In this document: in pieces, positions 19,457-64,000 of the stretch
How positions within the stretch are numbered: position 1 is the stretch's first letter
Layout: each line of letters starts with the position of its first letter
Assembly (NCBI GenBank): GCA_023249195.1
Contig: JAHFDB010000002.1
Span: 13,911-77,910, forward strand
Reading direction: 5' to 3'
Source: a bacterium
GTDB lineage: Bacteria > Margulisbacteria > Marinamargulisbacteria > SXXA01 > JAHFDB01
Length of the DNA: 64,000 nt
Translations under genes and position numbers: made by a program
The notes under the pieces: generated by a model
Database searches by the model: none
What the model saw: only the letters and a program-made list of their open reading frames with translations
What the model was told of the DNA's origin: nothing

Positions 19457-22346
<2,890 letters not shown>

Positions 22347-22350
<4 letters not shown>

Positions 22351-23069
22351 TTAAGAGTAAAGTGATCACCAAGATAAAATTTTCTTGCAACAGAATTATT
22401 GGCAATTTCAGTAGAATTTCCAGACAAAAGTAATTGTCCATTATGAATCAAGTAAGCTCTATCTGTAATAGCCAACGTTTCTCGTACATTATGGTCAGTA
22501 ATAATGACGCCTAGATTACGATTTTTAAGGGCCACTATAATCGTTTGGATTTCAGCAACTGCAATAGGATCAATACCTGCAAATGGCTCATCCAACAAAA
22601 TAAACGAAGGGTTTGTGGCCAAAGCACGGATGATTTCAACACGTCTTTTTTCCCCCCCAGACAACTCAACTCCCTTAGCTTTTTTTAAATGCAAAAGCCC
22701 CATCTCACCCAATAGTTGATCCAACCTAGAACTAAACTCCGATTTAGGAATAGTACCCAGAATTTCCCACAAAATATAAATATTTTCTTCCACTGTAAGC
22801 TTCTTAAAAATCGACGACTCTTGAGGAAGATACCCTAAACCCATCCGTGCCCGCTGAAACATAGGCACCTTAGTAATATCTTCGGAATCAAGAAAAACTT
22901 GCCCACTATCTGGCTTAACAAGTCCAATAATCATATAAAAAGTGGTTGTCTTACCCGCACCATTAGGGCCCAAAAGCCCCACAATTTCACCTCTATTCAT
23001 TGTAAGGCTCACACCATCTACAACAAGACGTCCATGATAGGATTTTTTCAGATCTTTAATTTCAATCAT
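22347..23069 (-). CDS. lptB: LPS export ABC transporter ATP-binding protein LptB
   Basis: 240 aa with Walker A GPNGAGKTT and an LSGGEKRRV signature. Confidence 0.85.
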
Positions 23070-24154
23070 GTACGAGTCACCCTTACAGGGTTCAATACGA
23101 AAGTAGAAGGAATTTCTTGAGTGGATTTCTGAAAATTAATCATCTTCACACCATAAACATAGTCTTCCTCGACAAACTGCCTCATGTTACCTAAAGAATC
23201 AAGCACCTCTTTAATACGCCGAGAGCAGGTTTCAATACCAGTCAATACTTGTTTTTCAGGAGATCCCTCAGAAAAGTGTTTATGCAAAGCCTGAGATCCT
23301 ATCAAAATACTTGTCAAAGGATTTCTAATATCATGATTCAAAGCAACTTGTACCTGATCAATCAACTTTTCTTTCTCTTCTTGAATAATAGGATCTGTCA
23401 GCTGTATTTTTGAATGGGACAAAGGCATAGAAGGACCCATGCGCAACAAACGTTTAAACCTCAACTGTATATCATGAGACACCAAAGGCTTCAAAATATA
23501 GTCATCCACCCTCTCTAAAAATACGCCTTTAGAACCAGAAAGATCATCTAAAGATATCGCTAACACCCGTTTAATATGGGTATATCGTTCAGACAAAACA
23601 GCTAAACTCTCATTCAAAAAGCCTTCAGATAATGCTGCATCGAATACCACTACAGAAGGAAAAGCGGATTCAATCAACGCAATCCCCTCTTCTTTTTTAG
23701 AAGCCCTCAAAACCAAAAACCCTTGAGAAGCAAGACTCTTTACAAGAGCTTCTTGTAATTCATAAGAAGCGGTTAGTACCACAATTTTTGTCATGGGAAC
23801 CTTGAGTAACTTCTTAACGCGAAACAACAAGTCGAATTTATAAAAAGGTCTAAGTATATAATCTTGACCACTTAGTAACAAAAGGCTCGCCTCCTGAGAC
23901 AATTCCGAAGAAGAAGCAATATAGAGAATAGGGATTGAACACGAAACAATCGCCTGACGCATATCAGAAAACAAAGAATCCTCAAGGCAAAAACCTACAT
24001 CTAACAAAACAAGATCAATAGAGTGTTCTTTTAAGGCCGTCCGGACAGCCTCGCCAGTATAAGCTTCAAAAATCGAAAAACCTTCTTGAAAAAGAGCTGC
24101 CTTTATTTGATCGGAATAACAAGGAGAAGAATCTACAACAAGAATGGCTGTCAT
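23066..24154 (-). CDS. tandem receiver (REC-REC) protein with a C-terminal HisKA/DHp phosphoacceptor domain and no HATPase domain
   Basis: Two CheY-like receiver segments (VVDSS...LLDVGF and VVLTAS...VVFDA...ILKPL), then an H-box NHDIRNPLTSI. The ORF ends without an ATP-binding domain and overlaps lptB by 4 nt. Confidence 0.6.
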   Translation of the reverse strand: MTAILVVDSSPCYSDQIKAALFQEGFSIFEAYTGEAVRTALKEHSIDLVLLDVGFCLEDSLFSDMRQAIVSCSIPILYIASSSELSQEASLLLLSGQDYILRPFYKFDLLFRVKKLLKVPMTKIVVLTASYELQEALVKSLASQGFLVLRASKKEEGIALIESAFPSVVVFDAALSEGFLNESLAVLSERYTHIKRVLAISLDDLSGSKGVFLERVDDYILKPLVSHDIQLRFKRLLRMGPSMPLSHSKIQLTDPIIQEEKEKLIDQVQVALNHDIRNPLTSILIGSQALHKHFSEGSPEKQVLTGIETCSRRIKEVLDSLGNMRQFVEEDYVYGVKMINFQKSTQEIPSTFVLNPVRVTRT

Positions 24155-24948
24155 ACTCGATACTCCCTTTGAATCCTTTCAATAGAAACGGCCCTGCCAC
24201 TAATGGCATCAACAGATACTTTAATGCCAGAAATAACCCGAGATCCAGAATCCATCGCATTAAAACGGACAGGCAACTGTGTTAAGAATTTTTGAATAAT
24301 AACGCCCCTCTCCATTCCAAGTATACCACCAGAAGCTCCCGTCATCCCAATATCAGTGATGTAGGCCGTCCCTTTTTCAAGAATTCTCTCGTCTGCGGTC
24401 TGCACATGGGTATGTGTACCAAAAACACAAGCCACCTTGCCATCTAAAAACCAACCCATAGCCTGTTTTTCTGAAGTTGCTTCAGCATGAAAATCAACCA
24501 GAATAATCTGAACTTCTTTTGCCAATGTCTCCATCTGAGATTGCATCTTTTGAAATGGACAATCAGAAGGATGCATAAACACCCTCCCAATGATATTTAC
24601 AACCGCAATTTTAATGTCATTAAACTGACAAATCTTAACCCCTAACCCAGGCGATCCTTTAGGAAAATTAAGAGGCCGGATCAGTTTCGGCATTTGGGAA
24701 AACTGATCCATAATTTCCTTTTTGTCATAAACATGATTTCCAGAAGTAAAAACCTGAACATCCAAAGAATCGAGCTCTTTATACGATTTCAAAGTAATAC
24801 CAAAACCACCAGAAGCATTTTCAACGTTCAAGACAGTAAAATGAGCATGGTTCTCCTGCTGAAGAGACCTCAGTTCCCTTAAGAGAATATGTCGTCCCAA
24901 TTTCCCTACCACATCTCCTAAGCATAAAATATTGAGAATCTTACTCAC
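24151..24948 (-). CDS. YmdB-family metallophosphoesterase (2',3'-cyclic-nucleotide phosphodiesterase-like)
   Basis: N-terminus MSKILNILCLGDVVGKLGR...GNH. Shows the conserved rny-ymdB pairing. Confidence 0.85.
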   Translation of the reverse strand: MSKILNILCLGDVVGKLGRHILLRELRSLQQENHAHFTVLNVENASGGFGITLKSYKELDSLDVQVFTSGNHVYDKKEIMDQFSQMPKLIRPLNFPKGSPGLGVKICQFNDIKIAVVNIIGRVFMHPSDCPFQKMQSQMETLAKEVQIILVDFHAEATSEKQAMGWFLDGKVACVFGTHTHVQTADERILEKGTAYITDIGMTGASGGILGMERGVIIQKFLTQLPVRFNAMDSGSRVISGIKVSVDAISGRAVSIERIQREYRV

Positions 24949-26486
24949 TATCTTGCAACGCCGACTGCCCGAGTTTCACGTATAATAGAAACCTTAACTT
25001 CCCCAGGATAATCCAACTCCGATTCAATTTTTTTAGCCATATCCAAAGCCATTTTATAAGCACCTGGGTCATCGACCTCATCAGGTTTCACAATAACTCT
25101 CACTTCACGGCCAGCCTGAATAGCATATGCTTTTTCAACCCCTTCAAACGTCTTGGCTATCGCTTCTAATTTCTCTAAACGTTTAACATAAGTCTCCAAT
25201 GATTCACGCCTTGCACCCGGTCTAGCAGAGGAGATCGCATCTGCAATCATAACAATAATCGCTTCCACAGTATCAGGGGGCTCATCCTCATGATGGGCCA
25301 TAATACAGTTCAAAATTTCTGGAGATTCCCCATATTTTTCACAGACTTCTTTACCTAATTCTGTGTGAGTACCCTCCTGCTCAAAATCCAAAGCTTTTCC
25401 AATATCATGCAGCAACGCACCCCTTTTAGCCAAAGCAATATTCACCTGCAACTCTCCTGCAATAATACCAGCCACATGTGCAGCTTCTAGAGAGTGTGCC
25501 AAAATATTCTGACCATAACTAGTTCTATAATTCAGTTTTCCTAAATATTCAATAATTTTAGGATGGAACTGCAAACCAACTTCATCAGCAGCTTGCTCAC
25601 CCTTCTCTCTAATAATTTCTTGAAGTTCCTTTTGTGCCTTTGCTACAGACTCTTCAATTCGAGCAGGATGAATACGACCATCCACTACTAATTTTGACAA
25701 GGCTAGTTTTGCTACTTCTCTACGAATAGGGTCAAAACAGGACAAAATAACAGCCCCGGGAGTATCATCAATAATAACATCTACACCGGTAGCCGCTTCA
25801 AAAGCTCGAATATTACGTCCTTCTCTTCCAATAACCCGACCTTTCATATCATCATCCGGCAATTGAACAACCGAGGTTGTCGCAGCCTGAACATGATCAA
25901 TAGCTGTGCGTTGAATTGCATCGACCACAATTTCTTTAGCACGTCGATTTGCTACCTTTTTTGCTTGATCTTCAATATCCTTAATCATCTTCCCCGCCTG
26001 TTGACGAACTTCCTTCTCAACATTTGATAGAACCATTTGCTTGGCTTCTTCTTTAGAAAAACCGGCAGCTTTTTCCAAAGTCACCAAAAGATCTTGAATA
26101 ATAGATTCCTGTTTCTTCTTTAAAGATTTAAATTTTTCGATATCAGCATTAAGAAGATCATCTTTTTCATTTAACTTAGCTTCCTTTGCATCTAAATGCT
26201 TCTCCTTCTGAAGGACTCGATTTTCCACCTCTGCAACGGACTGGCGTCGAGTGCGAATTTCCTCTTCCAGAGTATGTCGTGATTTCGACATCAAACTCTG
26301 TGACTCAGATTGAGCCTTTGAAATAAGCTCCTGAGCCTGTTTTGTAGAATCTACCAACGTTTTCTGAACTGTTTTCTCGACATCCTGAATTCGAGTATCT
26401 GCAGAAAGTTTTTTAAAAAAATAAAAAGCTACCGAAGAAGAAACAAGAACTATTGAACCTAAAATTACCCAAATAAAAATACCCAC
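24948..26486 (-). CDS. rny: ribonuclease Y
   Basis: N-terminal TM helix, a KH domain (GRVIGREGRNIRAFE) and an HD domain (HS...LLHDIGK). 512 aa. Confidence 0.92.
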   Translation of the reverse strand: MGIFIWVILGSIVLVSSSVAFYFFKKLSADTRIQDVEKTVQKTLVDSTKQAQELISKAQSESQSLMSKSRHTLEEEIRTRRQSVAEVENRVLQKEKHLDAKEAKLNEKDDLLNADIEKFKSLKKKQESIIQDLLVTLEKAAGFSKEEAKQMVLSNVEKEVRQQAGKMIKDIEDQAKKVANRRAKEIVVDAIQRTAIDHVQAATTSVVQLPDDDMKGRVIGREGRNIRAFEAATGVDVIIDDTPGAVILSCFDPIRREVAKLALSKLVVDGRIHPARIEESVAKAQKELQEIIREKGEQAADEVGLQFHPKIIEYLGKLNYRTSYGQNILAHSLEAAHVAGIIAGELQVNIALAKRGALLHDIGKALDFEQEGTHTELGKEVCEKYGESPEILNCIMAHHEDEPPDTVEAIIVMIADAISSARPGARRESLETYVKRLEKLEAIAKTFEGVEKAYAIQAGREVRVIVKPDEVDDPGAYKMALDMAKKIESELDYPGEVKVSIIRETRAVGVAR

Positions 26487-38524: not shown

Positions 38525-39973
38525 TTGCCTACAACTATACCTTGTCTGTTGCCTTTATGGAAGCCTAGACTTCGATTAGGTAGCTTTGTATACTTCCCAA
38601 TTATGTTCAAAAAGCTTATGGGACTCCCTGCCATGCCTTACCTCATTGTCTCATTTTTGATTCTGAGTTGGCCTTTTATTAATTTTCCGCTAACTGACGG
38701 AGACATTGAGCATTGGGTCAAAATAGCCACCTCTGTTCGGGTTCAAAATCTATTTTTAACAGGCCCCCATGACCAGGCGCATGGCCCTCTTCTTTCTTGG
38801 ACAGGAGGCCTACTCGCTCATCTTCATCCCACCTCTTTTTATCTGTATGCCTGCTTCAGTATCGTTATGGGCCTTTTGGGAGTTTTCTGGACCTATTATT
38901 TTTCACAAAAATTCTGGAAAAACACCTCTCTTTCCAAACTTTGCACCTTTGTATTTTCAACTAACATTGCATTTATATATCTCTCAAGAACACCCATGTA
39001 CGACTGGCCTGCCGCTATTTTTTATTTCGGATTTTGCGGATTTTATACGCTCTTTATCAAAGAGCATAAGTACTCTTTTTTAATTCTAAGCTTGTTTTGT
39101 CTGAGTGTGGGAAGCCTGAGTCGCTTTTCAATTTCATTGGGTTTGGGCATAGGCTATATCGCGGGAGCTCAACTCATCTTAAATAGAAAAAAAGGACTAA
39201 AAAATATCATAAAAGACATTTTTCTGATCACACTTACCGTGTGCTGTATAAATGCAGCGTGGATTTGGGGCCAATACACCACCCATGGAATCGCTTTTTT
39301 AGAAGAGTTTTTCTACGACAATATAGGAAGATATCTCAGAGAACCAGGAAACAGTACCATTCACCACGATTACTACGGGTTTGTGGTCTATGCGCTGATT
39401 GCCTTATTGCCTTATAGCCCCTGGTTTTTAGCCTCTATATTGCAAAAAAAATTTTTACAAACTTTAAAATCAGACACATGGGTTCAACTTCTCGGAATAG
39501 CGTGGCTGCCTTGTCTCGTCATTTTTTCTTTTTCAGGACATGTCAAATTAGGAAGATATATCGCCTATATTGTCCCCTCACTATCCTTGTTTATGAGCTA
39601 TTTACTTTTTCAAGACATTCAAAACACCGCCTACACTCAAAAAGTAAAAAGACTCATGCGCGTCATTCTAAGCTTATTAATAGCCCTTCTGGTATACGAA
39701 GGGTTTCATTTCAACACGGAATCTTTAAGCAGCGTACCACTCGTAATCAGCGTTGTTTGGGTCATATTTGGAGGACTCTTGTGGGCTTATTACACCTTAG
39801 TAATAAACCCCAAGAAATTTTTAGCCTCTCCAGAAAAATACCTTTATGGGTTCATAATTCTATATTTCGTTTTTTTCACTGTTCTGTCCTATGAAAGCCT
39901 TCATGCACCGTTTCTAGTAGAAACACGCTCAAAACTGTTATCTATCATTCAAAACAACTCGTCCCTTGAATGA
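38525..39973 (+). CDS. GT-C family glycosyltransferase (ArnT/PMT-like, GT83/GT39-type)
   Basis: Polytopic membrane protein with an acidic first-loop motif TDGDIEHW and a PLLSW segment typical of ArnT-like transferases. Confidence 0.6.
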   Translation: MPTTIPCLLPLWKPRLRLGSFVYFPIMFKKLMGLPAMPYLIVSFLILSWPFINFPLTDGDIEHWVKIATSVRVQNLFLTGPHDQAHGPLLSWTGGLLAHLHPTSFYLYACFSIVMGLLGVFWTYYFSQKFWKNTSLSKLCTFVFSTNIAFIYLSRTPMYDWPAAIFYFGFCGFYTLFIKEHKYSFLILSLFCLSVGSLSRFSISLGLGIGYIAGAQLILNRKKGLKNIIKDIFLITLTVCCINAAWIWGQYTTHGIAFLEEFFYDNIGRYLREPGNSTIHHDYYGFVVYALIALLPYSPWFLASILQKKFLQTLKSDTWVQLLGIAWLPCLVIFSFSGHVKLGRYIAYIVPSLSLFMSYLLFQDIQNTAYTQKVKRLMRVILSLLIALLVYEGFHFNTESLSSVPLVISVVWVIFGGLLWAYYTLVINPKKFLASPEKYLYGFIILYFVFFTVLSYESLHAPFLVETRSKLLSIIQNNSSLE

Positions 39974-40406: not shown

Positions 40407-41513
40407 TCAATTATTTATTTTTTTATAAATCAACCGAACAAATAATTTGTTCTTTTTAAAAAAGAAGTCGAGCGTTAGTGGTGGGGCAGGAAAAGAGTGT
40501 GCTTCAGAAAAAACCAATTCTGTCTCAACGGGTGCAAACCTAACAGTAATGGGCTGTGAAGAAATTTCATCCCCTGTGTAAGGATCCATCCAATAGGCCT
40601 CTTCCCTATTTTGAGACACCCCATAAGCAACCTTAATGCCAAAGGAAGCCTTTTCAATAGACAGCAAAGCCTCTGAAGAAGAGGGCAATGGCAGTTCTTT
40701 TTGATAAAGAACGCTTCCCTCATTAGCCAAGACAGCCAATAAGCGAGGAGGATTTTCAAAAACCCCATACACAATATCATTGCCTAAAACCAAAGGATGC
40801 CTAATCACCTCTGGACACTGAAAAACCCATTTTTTACAACCGGTTTCACGATCAAGCGCAATTAAAGTGCGATCTAAACTAAAATACACTGTGTCTGCGC
40901 TTAAGACAGGTCGTGTGTAGCCTGTATTTTTATTGGCGCTCACGGAGTTTTGCCAGTACACAATAGAATCAGCATCCGTACGAGAAGAAGAATTGCTTAA
41001 AAGGCTGAATCCATCCAAAAAATATCGTAGAGATTTTTGAATCTGCAACCAATGTTTATGTAGCGCAGCCACTGACACAACCACCCGCTTGTTACTCCCA
41101 ACAAAATAATACTCTCCAACGAGCTGTTTTTCGACCGCAAGACCTTCTGTCAACATATCCCGACTGTACACCGCAACATAACTCTCACTCGCATTGGCCA
41201 ACTGATTTTCAGAAGCAGTACCTGGCCTCTCTAACAAATTTACCCATCCATCATATGTAGTAGCCGCCTGGATCTTTTGAAATCCGTTCGCCGAAACAGT
41301 GTCTTGTAGAGGATATACCGAAATAGTAACACTCACGAGGGAAGCATCCCCAACCTGGAGAGCATTAGAAGAAACCGAAAGCACCTCCCATCCGGAAGGA
41401 AATCCGAATCGAACACCTAAGCCCGCATGTTCAAAAAGAGTTTGGGAGTAAAGGACTCCTGAAAGAAGAACAAAAAAAAGCGTCCCCGTCCAAAATGAGA
41501 GAATCCTACGCAT
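40407..41513 (-). CDS. secreted protein with C-terminal PQQ-like beta-propeller repeats (BamB-like fold?)
   Basis: Signal peptide MRRILSFWTGTLFFVLLSGVLYS and a segment ALDRETGCKKWVF. The tracked ORF starts at 41543. Confidence 0.5.
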   Translation of the reverse strand: MRRILSFWTGTLFFVLLSGVLYSQTLFEHAGLGVRFGFPSGWEVLSVSSNALQVGDASLVSVTISVYPLQDTVSANGFQKIQAATTYDGWVNLLERPGTASENQLANASESYVAVYSRDMLTEGLAVEKQLVGEYYFVGSNKRVVVSVAALHKHWLQIQKSLRYFLDGFSLLSNSSSRTDADSIVYWQNSVSANKNTGYTRPVLSADTVYFSLDRTLIALDRETGCKKWVFQCPEVIRHPLVLGNDIVYGVFENPPRLLAVLANEGSVLYQKELPLPSSSEALLSIEKASFGIKVAYGVSQNREEAYWMDPYTGDEISSQPITVRFAPVETELVFSEAHSFPAPPLTLDFFFKKNKLFVRLIYKKINN

Positions 41514-41569
41514 ATAGTATGAGTGTATCTCATAACATTGCAAGAAAGAAGGTCCTCGCTTACACTATT

Positions 41570-54977: not shown

Positions 54978-55922
54978 TCAAGCATACGAAGATGAAGGAT
55001 AGGCGTCAACGTTATACATTCCTAAAAAGGGTGCTGTTTCCCTATTCGGAACAGAAAAAAGCCTAAATCTGGTTTCTATTTTTTTTAGAAACATAGCCGA
55101 AAATGGGGTGTTCGAGCCCAAACTTCCTCCCATTAAAAAATGAGTGGTCCCCTTAACACGGGCACACTCCGGCTCAGACCAGTTGTTGTCAGCAGATATT
55201 TTCTGAATATGGCCCTCAAACAGTTTCTCTAAAAGCTGCTCCAAATACCCCGCCATTTCCAAAATATAAGGATGATCAAGGGGAGCGTCTTGAGCCAAAA
55301 CCCCTGTTTTTTCAAAAAAAGCCCTTCCTGAAATTAAGTCTTCCGCAGACTGCCATCGACCTTGAGAATTCTGCAAAGCAATATCGTAAATATGTCCATC
55401 GGTGTACACCTCAATGTCACCATGGGCCTGTACCGTCGCAAATCCGCCCCCTAAACCCGTTCCTGGCCCAACATAGCCCCACTTTCCTGGAACAGCCCCC
55501 TCTTTGAGCTGAGTCAACCCCCCCTTCATCTGGGCAATGGCATCATTCTCAATCTTTACAACCCACTTTTTCGGAAAAATAGGCCCTAAAAAAACGGCCA
55601 TATCGAGATTATCAAATTCCGTTTCGAAACTTTCGAGATTTCTAGCAGATCCCCTAGAAATAATATGTCGAGAAGGCCCGATTAATTTACCAGGAGTAGC
55701 GATTCCTACTTGAGGAAAAAATTCCCACCCGCGTGCCTTTACAACCCTCCCCGCCTCTATAAAAAGGGCCTGAATAGACCCCCAAAGAGCCTCTTTACCC
55801 TTATGTGTTACAGAGGTATCCCCGTACAAAACCCGACCCTCCCCACACAAAGCCCAACGAATTTTGGTACCTCCAATATCCACGCCTAAAAACACCTTGG
55901 TTTTGTTAAGAAAAGTTGTCAT
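54978..55922 (-). CDS. ROK-family sugar kinase (glucokinase/N-acetylglucosamine kinase-like)
   Basis: N-terminal LGVDIGGTKIR ATPase motif. Start at MTTFLN. The tracked ORF extends to 55967. Confidence 0.7.
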   Translation of the reverse strand: MTTFLNKTKVFLGVDIGGTKIRWALCGEGRVLYGDTSVTHKGKEALWGSIQALFIEAGRVVKARGWEFFPQVGIATPGKLIGPSRHIISRGSARNLESFETEFDNLDMAVFLGPIFPKKWVVKIENDAIAQMKGGLTQLKEGAVPGKWGYVGPGTGLGGGFATVQAHGDIEVYTDGHIYDIALQNSQGRWQSAEDLISGRAFFEKTGVLAQDAPLDHPYILEMAGYLEQLLEKLFEGHIQKISADNNWSEPECARVKGTTHFLMGGSLGSNTPFSAMFLKKIETRFRLFSVPNRETAPFLGMYNVDAYPSSSYA

Positions 55923-56020
55923 AGATACTGGCCATTCTAGTGCAAAACTCAAAACTTTTGTAATCACAATAATAATTTACTGGGTTTAATAATTAAGAAA
56001 AAACGGTATACTATTCAGCT

Positions 56021-56679: not shown

Positions 56680-57423
56680 ATGAATTTACTCGAACTAGTC
56701 CCACACTCACTTGAAGAACTCATTACCCAAGCCAAAGAACTGATTCAAACCATCCCTGAATTAAATGGCATTAATATCCCTGATGTGCTTCGTCTTCCCA
56801 TTCGCAGTCACGATGCGGCACATGCCCTGCTAAAAGAAGGTATTCTGGCCATTCCACATATTCGATGTATCGATCACACCCTTGAAGAGAGCGTAGCCCT
56901 TATCCACTCTCTCATTCAAACAGGGCTAAAGGCCGTTCTTATTGTTTCGGGAGACAAACCCTTAAGCCCCGAGGCACAAACGTTTGATATTTCTCCAGTG
57001 CTTCTGATCAAAACCCTCAAAAAAACCTTCCCTACTTTAAAAGTCTATGCCGCCCTCGACCCTTATCGTCAGTCATTTAAGCAAGAACTCGCCTATTGTC
57101 ATGCAAAAATTCTAGCCGGAGCCGACGGCTTTTTTACCCAACCTTTTTTTGATGTTTCTCTGGCTACACTTTTTTTAGATCAACTGACTCAAACCGAGAT
57201 TTTTTTAGGAATGTCTCCCGTCATGTCTGACAAATCACTGAACTACTGGAAAACCAAGAATATGGCCATTTTCCCCCCCCAATTTCAATTGGATTTAGAC
57301 TGGAACTGCCAACTGGGAGCACGCCTCGTCCAAGTCGCAAAATCCAGAGGCCTTAGCACTTATTTAATGCCCATCACCGTGTCTGCATTAGCCTATGCCA
57401 AAGGGGTCTTTCACCGACCATGA
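56680..57423 (+). CDS. methylenetetrahydrofolate reductase (MetF) family protein, short form
   Basis: IVSGDKP and GADGFFTQPFFD motifs collinear with the MTHFR TIM barrel. 247 aa. Confidence 0.6.
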   Translation: MNLLELVPHSLEELITQAKELIQTIPELNGINIPDVLRLPIRSHDAAHALLKEGILAIPHIRCIDHTLEESVALIHSLIQTGLKAVLIVSGDKPLSPEAQTFDISPVLLIKTLKKTFPTLKVYAALDPYRQSFKQELAYCHAKILAGADGFFTQPFFDVSLATLFLDQLTQTEIFLGMSPVMSDKSLNYWKTKNMAIFPPQFQLDLDWNCQLGARLVQVAKSRGLSTYLMPITVSALAYAKGVFHRP

Positions 57424-60400
57424 CCCCCGCATTTGTACACCTTCACTGTCACACGGAATACTCCCTGCTGGAGGGTGCCATACGCGTACCCGAACTTCTC
57501 AAACAAACCCATGCATTTGGAATGACATCTGTCGCCATTACGGATAGCGGTACCATGCACGGAATTATCGACTTCTATCTCAAAGCAAAATCGATGGGGA
57601 TCAATCCTATTATCGGCTGCGATATGTATCTCACCTCAGATATCACCATCAAAGAACGGGGGCTGAACCGTATTATCTTGCTCTGCAAGGATTATCATGG
57701 GTATCAAAACCTGGTAAAGCTCGTCACTATTTCTCACCTAGAGGGTTTTTATTACAAGCCCAGAATCGACCTCACGCAGCTTGCCAAACATACGAAAGGG
57801 CTTATCGCTATTTCACCCGGACAACGAGGTCCTGTTGGGTTTCACCTTCGCTCAGACGCACTAGAAGAAGCCAAATCCGTAGCAATCCAACTTAAAACCA
57901 TGTACGGATCAGATTTCTATCTTGGGCTTCAACGTCTAGACTTCCCAATGGAAGATATCGTTAATGACGGCTCTGTTGCTTTAGGCAAAGAACTCGATAT
58001 CCCTCTTGTCGCTACAAATGATATTTACTATCTCAAAAAAGAAGAGGCTTTTCTGCGTGAAGTGCTTCATTGCATCCAAACAGGAAAACTTTTACAAGAA
58101 GATATTCGAGCCAAGCTTCAAAGTGAAGAACTCTATTTAAAATCGCCAGAAGACATGTGCGCCCTCTTCGCCGACATTCCAGAAGCCATTTTGAACACCG
58201 TTGCTATCGCCAACAAATGTCACATCGCTATCGAAACCGAGCAGGTAAAACTTCCTCGATTTGAATGCCCAGACAACAAATCAGCAGAAGACTATTTAGA
58301 AGAATTGGTATGGGAAGGCATTCGTAAAAAATACCCCGAAGTCACCCAAGAGATCAAAGACAGAGTCGTATTTGAACTCAATACCATTAAACCCATGCAA
58401 TATGCTCCCTATTTCCTCATTATTTACGATTTTCTACACTTTTGTACAACATCAGGAATTCCCGTAGGCCCAGGCCGAGGATCCGCAGCTGGCTCGATTG
58501 TAGCCTACGCCTTAGATATCACTAAAATCGACCCACTCCGCTATCATCTGCTATTTGAACGATTTCTAAATCCTGAACGGGTCTCTATGCCCGATATTGA
58601 CCTTGATTTTTGCATTCGTCGTCGAGGTGAAGTGATTGACTACATTGTCAAAAAATACGGAACAGACCACGTTTCTCAAATTGCAACCTTTGGTACAATG
58701 GCTGCTCGGGGTGTCATTCGCGACGTTGGGCGAGTTCTCAATGTACCTCTAGCCGATGTTGACCGCATTGCCAAGCTTATTCCCTCGTTTCCTGGCTCTT
58801 ACACCAGTATTCCTGAAGCCTTAGAACAGATTCCCGATCTTAAAAAACTTCAAGACTCTTCAGAAGAAATCAAGCGCCTTCTGTCCATCGGAATCCGGCT
58901 AGAAGGATTTTCAAGGCATACATCGACACATGCTGCGGGAATTGTCATTTCAAGAGACCCCCTCTACACTGTCGTCCCTTTATCAAAAAATGAAGGTCAA
59001 GTCGTCACTCAGTTCTCGATGACTGACCTTGAAAAGGTCGGACTTCTAAAAATGGACATTTTGGGACTCCGCAACCTCACTGTAATGGACGATACGGTCA
59101 AACTGATTAAAACCCTTTATGGCATTGAGTTAGACCTCATAGCGTTCCCCTTCAACGACGAAAAAAGCTACAACATTCTCTGTTCTGGCAACACAATGGG
59201 CATTTTTCAGTTAGAGGGCAGAGGCATGCGTCAGCTCATCAAAGATATGAAACCCAGGGTTTTTGAAGACATCATCGCCATTCTAGCTCTCTATCGTCCC
59301 GGGCCTTTAGGTTCGGGAATGGTCAGCGACTTTATCTCAAACAAATCAGGTAAAACCACCGTTAAATATGACCTGCCTGAACTGGAACCCATTCTCAAAG
59401 AAACCTACGGCCTTATTGTCTACCAAGAACAGGTCATGCAAATCGCTTCGGTGATTGGAGGGTTTACGCTAGGCCAATCCGATATGCTCCGTCGTGCCAT
59501 GGGAAAAAAGAAAAAAGAAGAAATGGACAAGCTCAAAGACAAGTTCTTAGAGGGTGCTCAAGAACGCAAATTCCCCCTAGAAAAAGCCAACCGAATCTTT
59601 GAATTATGCTATAAATTCGCAGAATACGGATTCAACAAGTCACACTCCGCAGCCTATGCACTAATCTCTTACCAAACCGCCTATCTCAAAGCCAATTATC
59701 CTGTCGAATATATGAGCTCGCTCTTATCTAGTATTTTAGGATCTAGTGAACGTGTCTCTGGGTATATCCATGAATGTAAATCGATGGATATTCCTGTACT
59801 GCCTCCAGACGTCAATGAATCCGGAATTAATTTTACGATCGTCAAAAACACCGAAGGCAAAACCGCCATTCGATTCGGTCTAGGTGCCATCAAGAATGTC
59901 GGTGAGGGGGCCATTGAAAGCCTCATAGCCCACCGCATAGAGAAACCCTATACATCACTATTGGACCTGTGTAAAAGAGTCGATTTAAGGCAGGTAAATA
60001 AGCGTGTCATCGAAAGCCTCATTAAAAGCGGGGCATGCGATGCCTTCGGCCCCCGAGCTCAATTGCTCGCCATCTATGAACTCGTTTTAGAACGCGCCCA
60101 GGCCTTTATCAAAGAACGCAATAGCGGGCAATTGGGTCTCTTTGGGACAACTGAAATTGAAGATGATGCCGCTTTTCGAAGCTCGGATTATCCTTACATT
60201 GCAGACAGTGACATCCTTAAAATGGAAAAAGATATGCTAGGACTCTATATTTCCGGCCATCCGTTAGACGCCGTGAAAGAACGTTTTCTCAAGCTCCCCT
60301 TCAATACAGAGGTGCTCAAACCCGAAGACGAAGGAAAATCAGTCACCCTTTTAGGGTTTTTATCTGACTGCAGACGGGTCGTCACCAAAACAAAAAAAGA

Positions 60401-60812
60401 GATGGTCATAGGCACCCTCGAAGATATGTATGGCAGCATTTCCGTCGTCCTCTTTTTTCACCCCAATTTCGACGAAAAAGCCGCCCTATTTACCGATGAC
60501 ACACTCGTCCAAGTACAAGGAAAAGTCCGCCTCAGCCAGGAAGAGCTGTCTATTTCCTGCGACGACATCCAAGCCATCGACAAACATTCCGCCCCTAAAA
60601 AAGTCATGATTGACCCCGAAAACATCGAATCAATGGAAATTTTTCAAACCCTCAAAACCATAGCCACCCAAAACAAAGGCCCCCTCCCTCTTCACTTCCT
60701 ATTTCCAGAAGGAGAAGTCATCGCCCACCCCAAATTCTGGATCTCAGACAAAAAAGAATGCCTCGCCACGATTGAAGAAATTGTAGGAATGGGACATTGT
60801 TGGTTAGCTTAA
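57420..60812 (+). CDS. dnaE: DNA polymerase III subunit alpha
   Basis: 1130 aa with an N-terminal PHP domain (HLHCHTEYSLLEGA), a polymerase core and an OB domain. Confidence 0.95.
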   Translation: MTPAFVHLHCHTEYSLLEGAIRVPELLKQTHAFGMTSVAITDSGTMHGIIDFYLKAKSMGINPIIGCDMYLTSDITIKERGLNRIILLCKDYHGYQNLVKLVTISHLEGFYYKPRIDLTQLAKHTKGLIAISPGQRGPVGFHLRSDALEEAKSVAIQLKTMYGSDFYLGLQRLDFPMEDIVNDGSVALGKELDIPLVATNDIYYLKKEEAFLREVLHCIQTGKLLQEDIRAKLQSEELYLKSPEDMCALFADIPEAILNTVAIANKCHIAIETEQVKLPRFECPDNKSAEDYLEELVWEGIRKKYPEVTQEIKDRVVFELNTIKPMQYAPYFLIIYDFLHFCTTSGIPVGPGRGSAAGSIVAYALDITKIDPLRYHLLFERFLNPERVSMPDIDLDFCIRRRGEVIDYIVKKYGTDHVSQIATFGTMAARGVIRDVGRVLNVPLADVDRIAKLIPSFPGSYTSIPEALEQIPDLKKLQDSSEEIKRLLSIGIRLEGFSRHTSTHAAGIVISRDPLYTVVPLSKNEGQVVTQFSMTDLEKVGLLKMDILGLRNLTVMDDTVKLIKTLYGIELDLIAFPFNDEKSYNILCSGNTMGIFQLEGRGMRQLIKDMKPRVFEDIIAILALYRPGPLGSGMVSDFISNKSGKTTVKYDLPELEPILKETYGLIVYQEQVMQIASVIGGFTLGQSDMLRRAMGKKKKEEMDKLKDKFLEGAQERKFPLEKANRIFELCYKFAEYGFNKSHSAAYALISYQTAYLKANYPVEYMSSLLSSILGSSERVSGYIHECKSMDIPVLPPDVNESGINFTIVKNTEGKTAIRFGLGAIKNVGEGAIESLIAHRIEKPYTSLLDLCKRVDLRQVNKRVIESLIKSGACDAFGPRAQLLAIYELVLERAQAFIKERNSGQLGLFGTTEIEDDAAFRSSDYPYIADSDILKMEKDMLGLYISGHPLDAVKERFLKLPFNTEVLKPEDEGKSVTLLGFLSDCRRVVTKTKKEMVIGTLEDMYGSISVVLFFHPNFDEKAALFTDDTLVQVQGKVRLSQEELSISCDDIQAIDKHSAPKKVMIDPENIESMEIFQTLKTIATQNKGPLPLHFLFPEGEVIAHPKFWISDKKECLATIEEIVGMGHCWLA

Positions 60813-60901: not shown

Positions 60902-61957
60902 TCATAGTTGGATCTCAAATACACATTTTTGTTTCAAAATATCGAAAATCAGCACTTGCCCACCGTCTGTAACAATTGCAATCTCATGATCAGATAGTAA
61001 ATCCCAGTAGATAAACATGGATTTTGCTAAGAATTGAAGCAAAGGTTTTCCATTTTCAAATATTTGATATGAGAAAAAATGTTTAAAATACTCTGTGGCT
61101 ATTGGATTTAGCGTATATATTTTGTCGTTAAACAAAGACTTTATGGGATTATTTCCGTGGGGAGCGCTCATCCAATTTGTTATTGGAGTAAGGTTAAGTG
61201 TTTTTGGATCAATAGAGGCAAACTGAATTTGAAATTCTTTTGGGTGCTCGTAACTTACCAACACCCTGTTTGTACGTGACAGTGTTTCTTCAACGCTAAA
61301 ACCTCTTTGAAGTTTTTTGATAGGAATAGACTTGCTTGTTTTTATATTAAACACACTATGGGCTGGAGGAAAAACATACATCTTTTGGGTCACAAGAATA
61401 GTCTCATTAGTTAGCCAACCACAATATTGACCTTGGATAGCTAATTTTTTAAAGGTCCCGTTCTTAAGATTGAACAGGTAAAAACCACTCTTTGGATCTC
61501 CCTTTGGATATAGCATAAGTGGTCGGCCATTATCTTCTGAAAGTGTTGAATTGTCTTCTTTTTCTCGTCTATCAATAAAAAAAATAAGGTGCTGGTCATC
61601 ATAAGAAATCCCAGTTATCCGAACAACAGAATCATACTTTTGGCTATCTTTAAAAGACAGGGTTACAACCTCCCTTTCTTCCTCATTGGAATTCAATGAT
61701 TTTATGCTTAGTCCATCTATAAAAAACAATGTTTTACTTCTTTTAGAAAATAGGTAGTTTGAACCGAAGCCAAATTCTCCGGAAGGAATAGTTGTAAAAT
61801 GTTTTTTAGGCTCAAACTTCTCAACAGAATAGTTTTGACTAACTTTTGAGACTTTTACAAAACAATCTCGTCCTAACAAGAGTGTTTGAGCCTGAGAATT
61901 ATTCGTTAAAATACAAAAAAAGATTAAACCTACAAAATATTTAATTGGAATCTTCAT
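60902..61957 (-). CDS. secreted hypothetical protein (paralog family 1)
   Basis: Signal peptide MKIPIKYFVGLIFFCILTNNSQA. Its C-terminus is paralogous to the partial ORF at 63764..64000. Confidence 0.6.
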   Translation of the reverse strand: MKIPIKYFVGLIFFCILTNNSQAQTLLLGRDCFVKVSKVSQNYSVEKFEPKKHFTTIPSGEFGFGSNYLFSKRSKTLFFIDGLSIKSLNSNEEEREVVTLSFKDSQKYDSVVRITGISYDDQHLIFFIDRREKEDNSTLSEDNGRPLMLYPKGDPKSGFYLFNLKNGTFKKLAIQGQYCGWLTNETILVTQKMYVFPPAHSVFNIKTSKSIPIKKLQRGFSVEETLSRTNRVLVSYEHPKEFQIQFASIDPKTLNLTPITNWMSAPHGNNPIKSLFNDKIYTLNPIATEYFKHFFSYQIFENGKPLLQFLAKSMFIYWDLLSDHEIAIVTDGGQVLIFDILKQKCVFEIQL

Positions 61958-62284
61958 TAGTTCTGAGGCCCTTTCTTGTATCCCGGATCAAAAAACAATC
62001 GTCTTCCGTTTGGTTGAATTATATATTCTCCATAGTGGAGATGAGTCAAGTAATCTCCCCCAGTATTTCCTATAATACCTAGCTTATCGCCTGCATGGAC
62101 ATGGGATCCGCACCACATAGTCGCTGAGGTTTGGGACCCCTTCCCCAATAATTTGACCATTGGCCCAATAATAAAACTTTGTCAGAGTGTTTTCTTTGCT
62201 GTTGTATACCCTTTGGTGTTTGTGGTCATATCCGTAACATGCCCACGAACTGTTGTCTCTTTGGATCGAGCGTGTCATTTCCAT
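61957..62284 (-). pseudogene. frameshifted M23 (LytM) peptidase-domain remnant
   Basis: M23 core is split over two frames: ...YGYDHKHQ... in 62084..62284 and ...SHVHAGDKLGIIGNTGGDYLTHLHYGE... in 61957..62160. Confidence 0.55.
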
Positions 62285-62910
62285 CCTCTATCCAATTTTA
62301 CTTTCTCTCTATCGAGGATAATTCTATTCTCTTTCTTGTCTGAGTTGGCTTTGAAAAGTTCTTTAGAGATCTCTGCAATGACCAAATCGGTCTCTCCATA
62401 GCTCCCAAATAAAATGTATTTGTTTTTTGCATCAAAAACACAATAGCCTTTTGGCAATCCCATATTATTTTTTTGTAGTTTTTTTACAATGGGTTTCCCA
62501 AATTCTAGCTGAATAGCTGAGAATCGCCCATTTATCGATTCTCTATTCTCATCATTTTGAGTAGTGCCTTTAAAATTGTAATATGAATTTATTTTAGTTA
62601 TTCTTCTCTGGCGGTTTGTTTGAATACGAATAGCCATCAAATTGCCTACTCCGCTCTCGATTATATACTCAGGAAGCCCCTTAAATTCAACTCCTACTTT
62701 AGCCATATTCAAAATTATTTTATCCATGTAATAATCATTGGAAAATCCAGTTTTATTGATTTGTTTCCGTGTTATCGTTGGTTTTCCAAGAGGTTTTTGT
62801 ACTTCTGCATAAAATCTATCGAATTCTGTGGATGATCCAGAAGAAAAAACGCTAGTTGAACATGCAAATACCACTAAAAACAACAGTAAGCCAGAGAGAT
62901 AACATTTCAT
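62275..62910 (-). CDS. putative lipoprotein (paralog family 2)
   Basis: Signal peptide plus a lipobox-like VVFAC|S. 211 aa. Confidence 0.55.
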   Translation of the reverse strand: MKCYLSGLLLFLVVFACSTSVFSSGSSTEFDRFYAEVQKPLGKPTITRKQINKTGFSNDYYMDKIILNMAKVGVEFKGLPEYIIESGVGNLMAIRIQTNRQRRITKINSYYNFKGTTQNDENRESINGRFSAIQLEFGKPIVKKLQKNNMGLPKGYCVFDAKNKYILFGSYGETDLVIAEISKELFKANSDKKENRIILDREKVKLDRGWK

Positions 62911-63167
62911 CGCGCAATCCCAGGATCATAGTATTTCCAACGCCCATTGGATCGCCCTGTATTTCCTATGGTTCCAATAATTTGTCCCACATTCACATGT
63001 TCCCCTACGTTGATGGGACTTTTTGTCCGCATATGCGCATAGAGGCTACATTCATTTTTGTGTTGATCTCGAGTGGTAATGAGCAAGTTTCTAGACTCAT
63101 TTAGAGTGTGCTGCTTAGGTTCCATATTTTTTCCAAATACTGGGCCCAGATTTAATTCCTTTGTCAT
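62907..63167 (-). CDS. degenerate M23 peptidase-domain protein (lacks the HxH zinc ligands; likely inactive or a pseudogene)
   Basis: Central motif SLYAHM...VGEHVNVGQIIGTIGNTGRS. No HxxxD and no HLH. 4-nt overlap with the upstream gene. Confidence 0.5.
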   Translation of the reverse strand: MTKELNLGPVFGKNMEPKQHTLNESRNLLITTRDQHKNECSLYAHMRTKSPINVGEHVNVGQIIGTIGNTGRSNGRWKYYDPGIAR

Positions 63168-63738
63168 AGCTTTTTCTGGCGTTTTTGTTGATAATACTTT
63201 TTGTTATTCTTGCATAAAAATATTGAGATTTATCTCTTCCGGCCAGAAGATATTGATGCCGATATTGAGTATCAATATCTCTGTCCTCATAGGAAAATAC
63301 AATATATCCACCACTTTCCGTCAATTTATCCATAACAACCCGATCAGTTCCTTGATTCAATATCTCAACAAGCCATTTTGGATTAGGGCTTGCAACTTTG
63401 TAATACAAGCAAACTATCTGAATGATATTTTGATTATCTCTAAAAAAACGGATTCCACAGTTTCCATTCTCAAGTAAATACTCGTTATCCCCTAAAAACT
63501 TTTGGCCCAACTCAAGCGCTTTCCCCCCATTTTTTTCTTTGAAAAAAGAATGGAAATCTTCCTTCGTCAAATCCTTGTTTTTCATACCAGACAGCCCTTG
63601 TTTTGATTCTAAAAAGGGAGTGTTTAATTTTCTATAGATATCCTCAATAGTATAATTACCCCCGATAATTTCTGTTGTTTTTGCAAAACAATCCGTTGAA
63701 AAAATCACTACTCCAATAAGCAATATAAAATATTTCAT
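63115..63738 (-). CDS. secreted hypothetical protein (paralog family 2?)
   Basis: Signal peptide MKYFILLIGVVIFSTDCFA. The tracked ORF extends to 63807. Confidence 0.5.
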   Translation of the reverse strand: MKYFILLIGVVIFSTDCFAKTTEIIGGNYTIEDIYRKLNTPFLESKQGLSGMKNKDLTKEDFHSFFKEKNGGKALELGQKFLGDNEYLLENGNCGIRFFRDNQNIIQIVCLYYKVASPNPKWLVEILNQGTDRVVMDKLTESGGYIVFSYEDRDIDTQYRHQYLLAGRDKSQYFYARITKSIINKNARKSYDKGIKSGPSIWKKYGT

Positions 63739-63763
63739 TGTTACTTCCCCTTGAAAGTCTCCC

Positions 63764-64000
63764 TCACAATTGAGTTTCAAATACCTTCTTTCTTTGTATA
63801 ATATCAAAAATTAATAGATGGCTATCCTCTGTTAGAATGGCTACTTTATGAGGTGCGATGACATCCCAAGTCATAAACGGTGAAGTCTCTTTAAATTTAA
63901 CTGATGGAATACCATTTGCAAAAATATGATAACTAAACTTCTTTTGTACGTAATCCGATTTAATCATACCTATAGAGTATATTTTATGCTCACACCTAGA
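63764..64000 (-). CDS. 3' part of a paralog of the 60902..61957 secreted protein (runs off the window)
   Basis: ...FSYHIFANGIPSV...LLIFDIIQRKKVFETQL versus ...FSYQIFENGKPLL...VLIFDILKQKCVFEIQL. The frame stays open to position 64000. Confidence 0.55.
   Translation of the reverse strand, partial: SRCEHKIYSIGMIKSDYVQKKFSYHIFANGIPSVKFKETSPFMTWDVIAPHKVAILTEDSHLLIFDIIQRKKVFETQL

Follow-up and report, generated by a model that had tools for sequence, protein, structure and literature searches.

The 64,000-nucleotide (nt) stretch of contig JAHFDB010000002.1 analysed here (the window), from a bacterium of the Marinamargulisbacteria, ends in a 3.1-kb island of minus-strand genes in which predicted exported proteins alternate with short open reading frames (ORFs), some of which resemble M23 (LytM) peptidases. 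Very probably, this region forms the 3' end of a polymorphic toxin locus of the Rhs type, where the current toxin tip, an M23 peptidase, and its immunity gene are followed by displaced cassettes of toxin remnants and immunity genes. Counted from the window edge, the array comprises a predicted immunity gene for a protein of 348 amino acids (aa), designated imm348; a gene for a 207-aa secreted protein; a truncated M23 sequence (stump a); a gene for a 211-aa predicted lipoprotein; a putative Rhs-core stump followed by a second truncated M23 sequence (stump b); and imm351, which encodes a 351-aa paralogue of the imm348 product. The ORFs that a first-pass annotation had placed on the minus strand of this region are all found in the ORF list, at the coordinates given below.

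The gene that explains the island lies almost entirely beyond the window. Two contigs from other assemblies match the window, L002 at 99.9% and L003 at 100% identity, and both run ~1.6 kb past base 64000. In virtual coordinates continued beyond the edge, the full imm348 gene extends from ~64810 to 63767, of which the window retains the last 78 codons and the stop (63764..64000, with the last codon ending at 63767), and the C-terminal region of the upstream gene occupies ~65611..64820; the stop codon of the latter lies 6 nt upstream of the imm348 start in L003. The 264 residues available for this upstream protein begin with YTDPDGQFFGIDDF, the apparent end of an Rhs core (YTDPDGQ), followed by a linker of ~105 aa (36% Gly plus Ala, with several small-xxx-small motifs and two to three hydrophobic segments) and then by a complete M23 domain (Pfam E value of 3.6e-16, positions 2-85 of the hidden Markov model [HMM]). 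The alignment of this domain with the catalytic domain of LytM (2b44; E 1e-9) includes HEGDD as the HxxxD motif, the histidine of the AH motif, and HLH as the HxH motif. The complete set of HxxxD, HxH, and catalytic His is present only in this intact toxin outside the window and in neither of the two copies within it. A word-indexed search with the toxin C-terminal region returned no matches. Judged from these features, the upstream gene would encode an Rhs-type carrier with an M23 peptidase tip.

The same combination occurs in a second locus, L087 (ERZ19567070; GC content of 0.37), which comes from a separate sample and was found by an exhaustive search with the 351-aa protein. The L087 toxin has a clear Rhs core (TIGR03696, Rhs_assc_core; E 2.5e-21, 76 bits against a cut-off of 32.5) that ends in ...NNPLMYTDPDGE at YTDPDGE, and its similarity to the window-locus toxin (42% identity over 277 aa, E 1e-55) starts exactly at YTDPDG. 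The two linkers are homologous, that of L087 having a weak match to the Pfam family Glycine zipper 2TM (E 0.016), and the L087 M23 domain is likewise intact (E 7.9e-19). A few bases after this toxin gene comes P0010, a homologue of the imm351 and imm348 products with the lipoprotein-like signal MKKKVVAIFILLLILCC. The L087 sequence (positions 1-2386) contains a 10-N scaffold gap that interrupts the immunity gene; because of this gap, P0010 as called lacks its N terminus, and the true start is apparently the lipoprotein signal just after the toxin stop. Members of the 348/351 family thus directly follow the toxin both in the window locus and in L087, so that two independent loci share the combination of an Rhs-core M23 toxin and a gene of this family, whose products are predicted to be β-propellers (see below). 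A third locus, L085, was detected by a metagenome scan with the toxin C-terminal region and belongs to a distant, high-GC organism. Its Rhs core (TIGR03696, E 1.4e-11) ends in ...NNPLAGTDPSGQ (TDPSGQ), and the core is followed by FFGIDDF and a Gly-rich region, the same junction as in the window-locus toxin. The L085 ORF (94-1266) starts inside the Rhs core and continues past TDPSGQFFGIDDF for ~330 Gly/Ala-rich residues that contain no M23 domain and have a weak match to DUF637 (E 0.009), with small genes resembling helix-turn-helix proteins located downstream. L085 thus combines the same post-core junction with a different tip, which is possibly purely membrane active.

Within the window, Peptidase_M23 is detected by Pfam in only two island ORFs, of 86 and 67 aa, and the remaining ones, including those for the 207-aa and 211-aa proteins, have no family match in Pfam or NCBIfam. 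Stump a is the 86-aa ORF (62907..63167; ORF 63167..62910), with M23 homology at 63101..62916 that covers HMM positions 41-80 of 96 (E 3e-8, above the curated cut-off). Its similarity to the intact toxin is well above that of shuffled sequences (z = 8.4), and it aligns with residues 251-325 of the L087 toxin (42% identity, E 1e-11) across a 14-residue gap that removes PHLHYGEF…. The homology begins 16 nt past the stop codon of the 207-aa gene, and the stop of the ORF overlaps the start of the 211-aa gene (ATGA at 62910). The alignment bears out the first-pass claim that this copy had lost both zinc-binding motifs; it shows that HxxxD disappeared with the 5' truncation and HxH with an in-frame deletion of 13-14 codons. 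Stump b is the 67-aa ORF (61957..62160; ORF 62160..61960), whose homology at ~62130..61969 covers HMM positions 59-86 of 96 (E 9e-4, below the curated cut-off). It matches the last 43 residues (221-263) of the intact toxin at 59% identity (E 2e-14; z = 22) and the L087 toxin at 52% identity (E 4e-11). It corresponds to the last 45-50 codons of an M23 tip, retaining HLH (in THLHYGE) with HxxxD absent, and its stop overlaps the start of imm351 (TAATG at 61957). The stop-start overlaps at the stumps are thus 1-4 nt long, and the intact toxin genes sit a few bases from their predicted immunity genes. The N-terminal half of the M23 domain is absent from all three frames upstream of either stump, and both stumps, to judge by their sequences, are dead. 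"Effector remnants" had been one option of the first-pass annotation, and it proved to be the correct one, since both stumps correspond to the 3' part of an M23 toxin that occurs intact on an Rhs-type core.

The segment between the 211-aa gene and imm351 (61957..62284) had been described as one more M23 copy that retains THLHYGE and is split over two reading frames. The motif is indeed kept in the 67-aa ORF, and the two ORFs are in different frames, but the upstream 66-aa ORF (62084..62284; ORF 62284..62087) is not an M23 sequence, as neither Pfam nor a shuffle test revealed any M23 similarity. The motif GQIIG, common to the 66-aa and 86-aa ORFs, was considered as a sign of M23 homology and rejected, since the score of the whole sequences did not exceed that of shuffles and since IIGEG occurs in the homologue from L087, there as part of an Rhs-core sequence. 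The homologue in question, ORF-X, follows the immunity gene in L087 and is 47% identical to the 66-aa ORF (E 4e-10), with the homology located at 62251..62108. The 66-aa ORF probably starts at MTR..., in an ATGA overlap with the end of the 211-aa gene, and both the overlap and the start recur in L087, where ORF-X runs to the contig end with ...FYYFINNAQGTPVLIVDEQNNAISKINLDEWGNVGDK. When the ORF-X tail was placed before the L087 core end in a chimera, the score of the RHS_core model NF041261 rose from 23.7 to 38.3 bits, and the start of the HMM match moved from position 1201 to 1159. A scan of viral contigs for ORF-X and the 66-aa ORF found none. The 66-aa ORF may accordingly be what is left of the Rhs-core segment at the 5' end of an orphan rhs module. 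The homology of this core fragment ends at 62108 and that of stump b starts at ~62103, which points to a single deletion at ~62103-62108 that fused the Rhs-core fragment to stump b out of frame. What had been taken for a frameshift at 62084..62160 is thus the site where a deletion joined an Rhs-core fragment to the 3' end of an M23 sequence, and resequencing will therefore not restore an intact M23 gene.

The island has been assembled repeatedly. Its genes are matched at 99.5-100% identity by four contigs from three assemblies (ENA ERZ27279942, ENA ERZ27279977, and Logan SRR14366796), so that the truncated M23 ORFs are not errors of a single metagenome-assembled genome (MAG), and this level of agreement extends across the stumps. 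Exact look-ups with the 351-aa protein gave matches only on 1.3-kb contigs, those with the 207-aa, 211-aa, and DnaE proteins gave no contigs, and a scan of genome contigs with the 207-aa protein also found none. The idea that two M23 genes are in fact intact and were disrupted only by errors of sequencing or assembly, which would turn the island into an artefact of a poor MAG, draws on the metagenomic origin of the contig and on the one ORF pair in different frames. It is scarcely credible, given that several assemblies agree almost perfectly across the stumps, that no missing M23 half is found in any upstream frame, that the frame upstream of stump b is homologous to a different segment, an apparent Rhs core, and that the HxH motif of stump a was lost through an in-frame deletion of whole codons.

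According to another explanation, the short M23 ORFs encode functional but catalytically dead LytM regulators of amidases or other cell wall hydrolases, similar to EnvC, NlpD, or ActS, with the neighbouring secreted proteins as their partners. Like such regulators, the 86-aa ORF lacks both zinc motifs, and the intact domain of the toxin shows weak, sub-threshold similarity to the NCBIfam models of NlpD, EnvC, and ActS, which reflects only the shared M23 fold. The regulators are full-length folded proteins with export signals and partner modules, whereas the window copies are fragments of 45-75 residues from the C-terminal part of the domain that span HMM positions 41-80 and 59-86 of 96, not even the whole C-terminal half of the fold, and that carry no signal peptide, LysM domain, or coiled coil. 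Furthermore, both are 3' fragments of a toxin that is intact on an Rhs core here and in L087, one of them is fused out of frame to the putative Rhs-core remnant, and the exact 67-aa sequence is absent from the protein collection. The regulator explanation, favoured in the first-pass annotation, is close to refuted, and its chances appear negligible.

All four long island proteins start with signal or lipoprotein sequences, as judged by eye. In the 207-aa protein (63115..63738; ORF 63738..63118), the signal peptide is MKYFILLIGVVIFSTDCFA, cut before K, and the ATG codon is preceded by the Shine-Dalgarno-like sequence AAGGGGAAG. The 211-aa protein (62275..62910; ORF 62910..62278) contains VVFAC, which we take to be a lipobox according to the PROSITE rule. 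The description of these two as a pair of ~210-aa secreted proteins stands as far as the signal peptide and lipobox are concerned, and their mutual similarity turned out to be marginal (BLASTP E 0.006; z = 3.8 for the mature parts, a score attained by 14 of 2000 shuffles), so the 207-aa protein and the 211-aa lipoprotein may be distant paralogues. Two sequence variants affect the 211-aa gene: L002 (ERZ27279942) has a nonsense change, K114*, together with S125L (window position 62571, L002 position 2913), and L004 (ERZ27279977) has three synonymous changes close to its contig end. Such changes may mean that an orphan immunity gene is decaying within the population, or they may be noise near the contig ends.

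The relationship between the two largest proteins is much clearer. The recurrence of the C terminus of the 351-aa protein (imm351, 60902..61957; ORF 61957..60905) in the edge ORF, noticed in the first-pass annotation, is confirmed by pairwise alignment (45% identity over 73 aa, E 3e-21), and it extends to the full 348-aa paralogue in L003 (37% over 331 aa, E 3e-69). This paralogy, together with the truncated M23 copies, supports the earlier description of the region as a duplicated, diverging, and partly decaying island; no recent DNA duplication was found in it, the cassettes being at most 65-69% identical at the DNA level. The family is very rare: an exhaustive search of 1.84 billion representative proteins found three true relatives of the 351-aa protein, namely, the 348-aa paralogue (P0008), P0010, and P0011. 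Word-indexed searches retrieved the protein itself only and, with a profile of the four sequences, the protein itself and P0011 only. Two ~3,500-aa cadherin-like/RTX adhesins, P0009 and P0012, also matched the 351-aa protein (E 5e-36 and 1e-10, respectively) and were rejected because the score came from 16-22 weak repeated stretches that all matched residues 70-118; a β-strand motif may be shared. An AlphaFold2 model of the imm351 product, built from the four sequences, has an all-β fold (predicted local distance difference test score [pLDDT] of 75.8, predicted template modelling score of 0.70) and suggests a 7-bladed β-propeller.

The "secreted paralogues" are best read as periplasmic immunity proteins, because the 348/351 family follows an M23 toxin in two independent loci. 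For the intact M23 toxin on the Rhs carrier, the imm348 product is the predicted cognate immunity protein; the imm351 product is predicted to be an orphan immunity protein paralogous to it, and the 211-aa lipoprotein an orphan immunity protein that matches stump a. The 207-aa protein could be an accessory factor or a further immunity protein, either a second or an orphan one. Conceivably, the Rhs-M23 toxin is real but the signal peptide-containing proteins serve as adaptors, secretion partners, target binders, or unrelated cargo, or the enzyme is used for predation or cell wall remodelling and not for competition with kin. In line with such roles, none of these proteins has a sequence or fold link to any known immunity family, the 207-aa gene, flanked by an immunity gene and a stump, lacks a toxin that could be assigned to it, and P0011 is not toxin adjacent. 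Nevertheless, the toxin and the close downstream gene are conserved as a pair in two loci, a paralogue is kept beside a homologous toxin stump, the periplasmic location suits the substrate of the toxin, and the whole arrangement is the usual signature of toxin-immunity modules (PMC3482391; PMC12135965), so roles other than immunity appear improbable.

Taken together, these data suggest the following scheme. The main gene, nearly all of it past the window, would encode an Rhs-associated core (...YTDPDGQ), a ~105-aa glycine-zipper linker, and an intact M23 zinc endopeptidase. Delivered into the periplasm of a neighbouring cell, the M23 tip would cut peptidoglycan cross-links, and the producer would be shielded by the periplasmic 348-aa β-propeller encoded directly downstream. 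The rest of the array would represent fossils of older tips, each pushed downstream as a new tip-plus-immunity cassette recombined in. Stump a and the 211-aa lipoprotein would form the first fossil; the second would consist of the Rhs-core fragment deletion-fused to stump b and of the 351-aa protein paralogous to the immunity protein now in use. That the immunity genes remain intact probably reflects continued protection from relatives armed with those toxin variants. The breakpoints of the stumps fall within the toxin domain, and one stump also has internal deletions, so simple recombination could not re-arm them.

Several observations weigh against this scheme or parts of it. The available contigs contain only the last seven residues of the Rhs core of the window locus (YTDPDGQ); no gene for a YD-repeat shell or an N-terminal delivery domain is present in the 64-kb window, and no component of a type VI secretion system (T6SS), such as VgrG, PAAR, Hcp, or an adaptor, was found among the window ORFs scanned. 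The stumps lack the long core homology of many enterobacterial orphans. On their own, L087 ORF-X and the 66-aa ORF matched neither Rhs HMMs nor PDB sequences, so that the Rhs identity of ORF-X depends on the constructed chimera; with these direct searches negative, the Rhs-core identity of the 66-aa ORF is supported but not proven. No homologues of the 207-aa and 211-aa proteins were found, and an AlphaFold2 model of the latter, with the 207-aa protein as the sole alignment partner, failed (pLDDT of 33.5). Finally, P0011 is a truncated copy of the 351-aa family on a ~1-kb contig (L086) with no adjacent toxin; the ORF upstream of it encodes a zinc-ribbon membrane protein.

The flanks of the island contain housekeeping genes, including dnaE, lexA, typA, recA, those for MTHFR, an ABC transporter, RNase Y, and SecY, and ribosomal genes, and 90 nt separate the end of the array from the stop codon of the convergent dnaE (57420..60812). 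No terminator-like sites were found in the island, and promoter-like sites are no more common there than in shuffled sequence. The GC content of the island (0.352, against 0.399 ± 0.023 in the rest of the window) is below that of every other 3.1-kb stretch, and the GC skew is near zero at 61-62 kb, which is atypical for a window in which it is otherwise strongly negative. Throughout nearly the entire window, the skew is ~-0.1 to -0.4 per kb regardless of gene strand, approaching zero only at 45-46 and 61-62 kb, which is an unusually strong replication-strand bias for a genome with 40% GC. Three window ORFs (38525-39973, 40407-41543, and 54978-55967; 329-482 aa) have no Pfam match at E <= 1e-5.

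In a comparison that covered one genome per species (185,579 species), the closest DnaE (62% identity) came from the MAG "bacterium WBA_2_294" (L005, RHAI01000002.1), and all others were at most 47% identical; the host is therefore a member of a deep, poorly sampled lineage. A literature search with the name of this MAG found nothing. In L005, dnaE is followed by glmS and other housekeeping genes, and the synteny comparison called for in the first-pass annotation thus finds no island after dnaE in the nearest relative. Genes for LptF/G and the adjacent ABC ATPase of lipopolysaccharide export are located at 21247-26486, adjoining those for RNase Y and YmdB; the host therefore has an outer membrane and a periplasm. 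Exported immunity proteins against a peptidoglycan hydrolase fit such a diderm host, and the combination of a diderm envelope with RNase Y-based RNA decay may help to place the lineage.

Orphan rhs modules that carry a piece of the core are a classical arrangement (PMC3967940, PMC3482391), and Rhs and contact-dependent inhibition (CDI) loci with displaced cassettes are well known (PMC3482391, PMC3967940, PMC10539506), as exemplified by rhs-main and rhs-orphan of Salmonella Typhimurium LT2 (PMC3967940) and by the Serratia Rhs effectors with orphan immunity genes (PMC10539506). As in those loci, a core that ends with DPxG comes directly before a variable C-terminal toxin in the L087 and L085 homologues and, to judge by seven residues, probably in the window locus; the predicted immunity gene comes directly downstream, and truncated toxin pieces, one with a core fragment, follow together with intact immunity genes; the downstream orphan modules present here are stump a with the 211-aa gene and the putative Rhs-core remnant with stump b and imm351. 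The lower GC content of the island relative to the surrounding window is a further common feature. In contrast to those loci, the tip of the window locus is an M23 endopeptidase after a glycine-zipper linker, the stumps are cut inside the toxin domain (one with internal deletions), and the host, with its best DnaE match at 62%, belongs to a deep lineage, the locus being known here without its Rhs shell or delivery system. The available part of the text of the 2012 polymorphic toxin catalogue (PMC3482391) mentions neither M23 nor LytM, and the combination of Rhs with M23 may therefore be little described.

Effectors of the T6SS with M23 domains and neighbouring genes for signal-peptide immunity proteins have been described (PMC6833914, PMC12135965). 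These include Tse4/Tpe4 of Acinetobacter baumannii and other Tpe groups (PMC6833914), WHIX-M23 proteins (PMC12135965), and the Enterobacter DUF3289-M23 effector (PMC10763514). In common with what is proposed for the window locus, they deploy an M23 domain against other bacteria in the periplasm, and a neighbouring gene encodes a signal-peptide protein taken as immunity. However, those M23 domains are not Rhs-encapsulated C-terminal tips and are combined with LysM, WHIX, or DUF3289 domains, the scanned window ORFs include no T6SS gene, and the immunity family found here has no relatives among theirs. Glycine-zipper segments can themselves be membrane toxins, as in the Rhs-borne Tse5-CT of Pseudomonas aeruginosa and the LXG-borne EsxX of Staphylococcus aureus (PMC12744356). 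The window-locus toxin has a similar Gly/Ala-rich region with small-xxx-small motifs right after the end of the Rhs core; unlike in Tse5-CT and EsxX, it precedes an enzymatic domain, and no membrane-protein immunity gene is present. The glycine-zipper linker may form pores, anchor the toxin, or help in its translocation. A bolder proposal, in which the 348/351-aa β-propellers would be a new class of specific M23/LytM peptidase inhibitors and the Rhs tip would be a two-part warhead, with the zipper as a pore or carrier for the M23 domain and a delivery route that is maybe not the T6SS, is put forward tentatively and is rather doubtful at present.

As a whole, the arrangement is the expected one, with orphan or displaced cassettes for toxins and immunity proteins arrayed in the classical manner, and what is new here is modest: an apparent M23 tip on an Rhs carrier, a very rare immunity family of predicted β-propellers, and a deep, uncultivated diderm host. 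Under the Rhs reading, the odd "dead LytM" ORFs become a readable history of toxin-tip replacement, and an M23 peptidoglycan endopeptidase would be added to the warheads carried by Rhs proteins. For genome annotation, it implies that short M23-positive ORFs next to signal-peptide genes should prompt a look for an upstream Rhs gene before such ORFs are called regulators. The β-propeller family and the two orphan secreted proteins are nominated as candidate M23 inhibitors. Inhibitors of this kind would have value as reagents, given that M23 enzymes, lysostaphin and LytM among them, are under study as antibacterials. Worth following up in this locus are the rare family of predicted β-propeller immunity proteins and the tip that combines a glycine zipper with an M23 domain.

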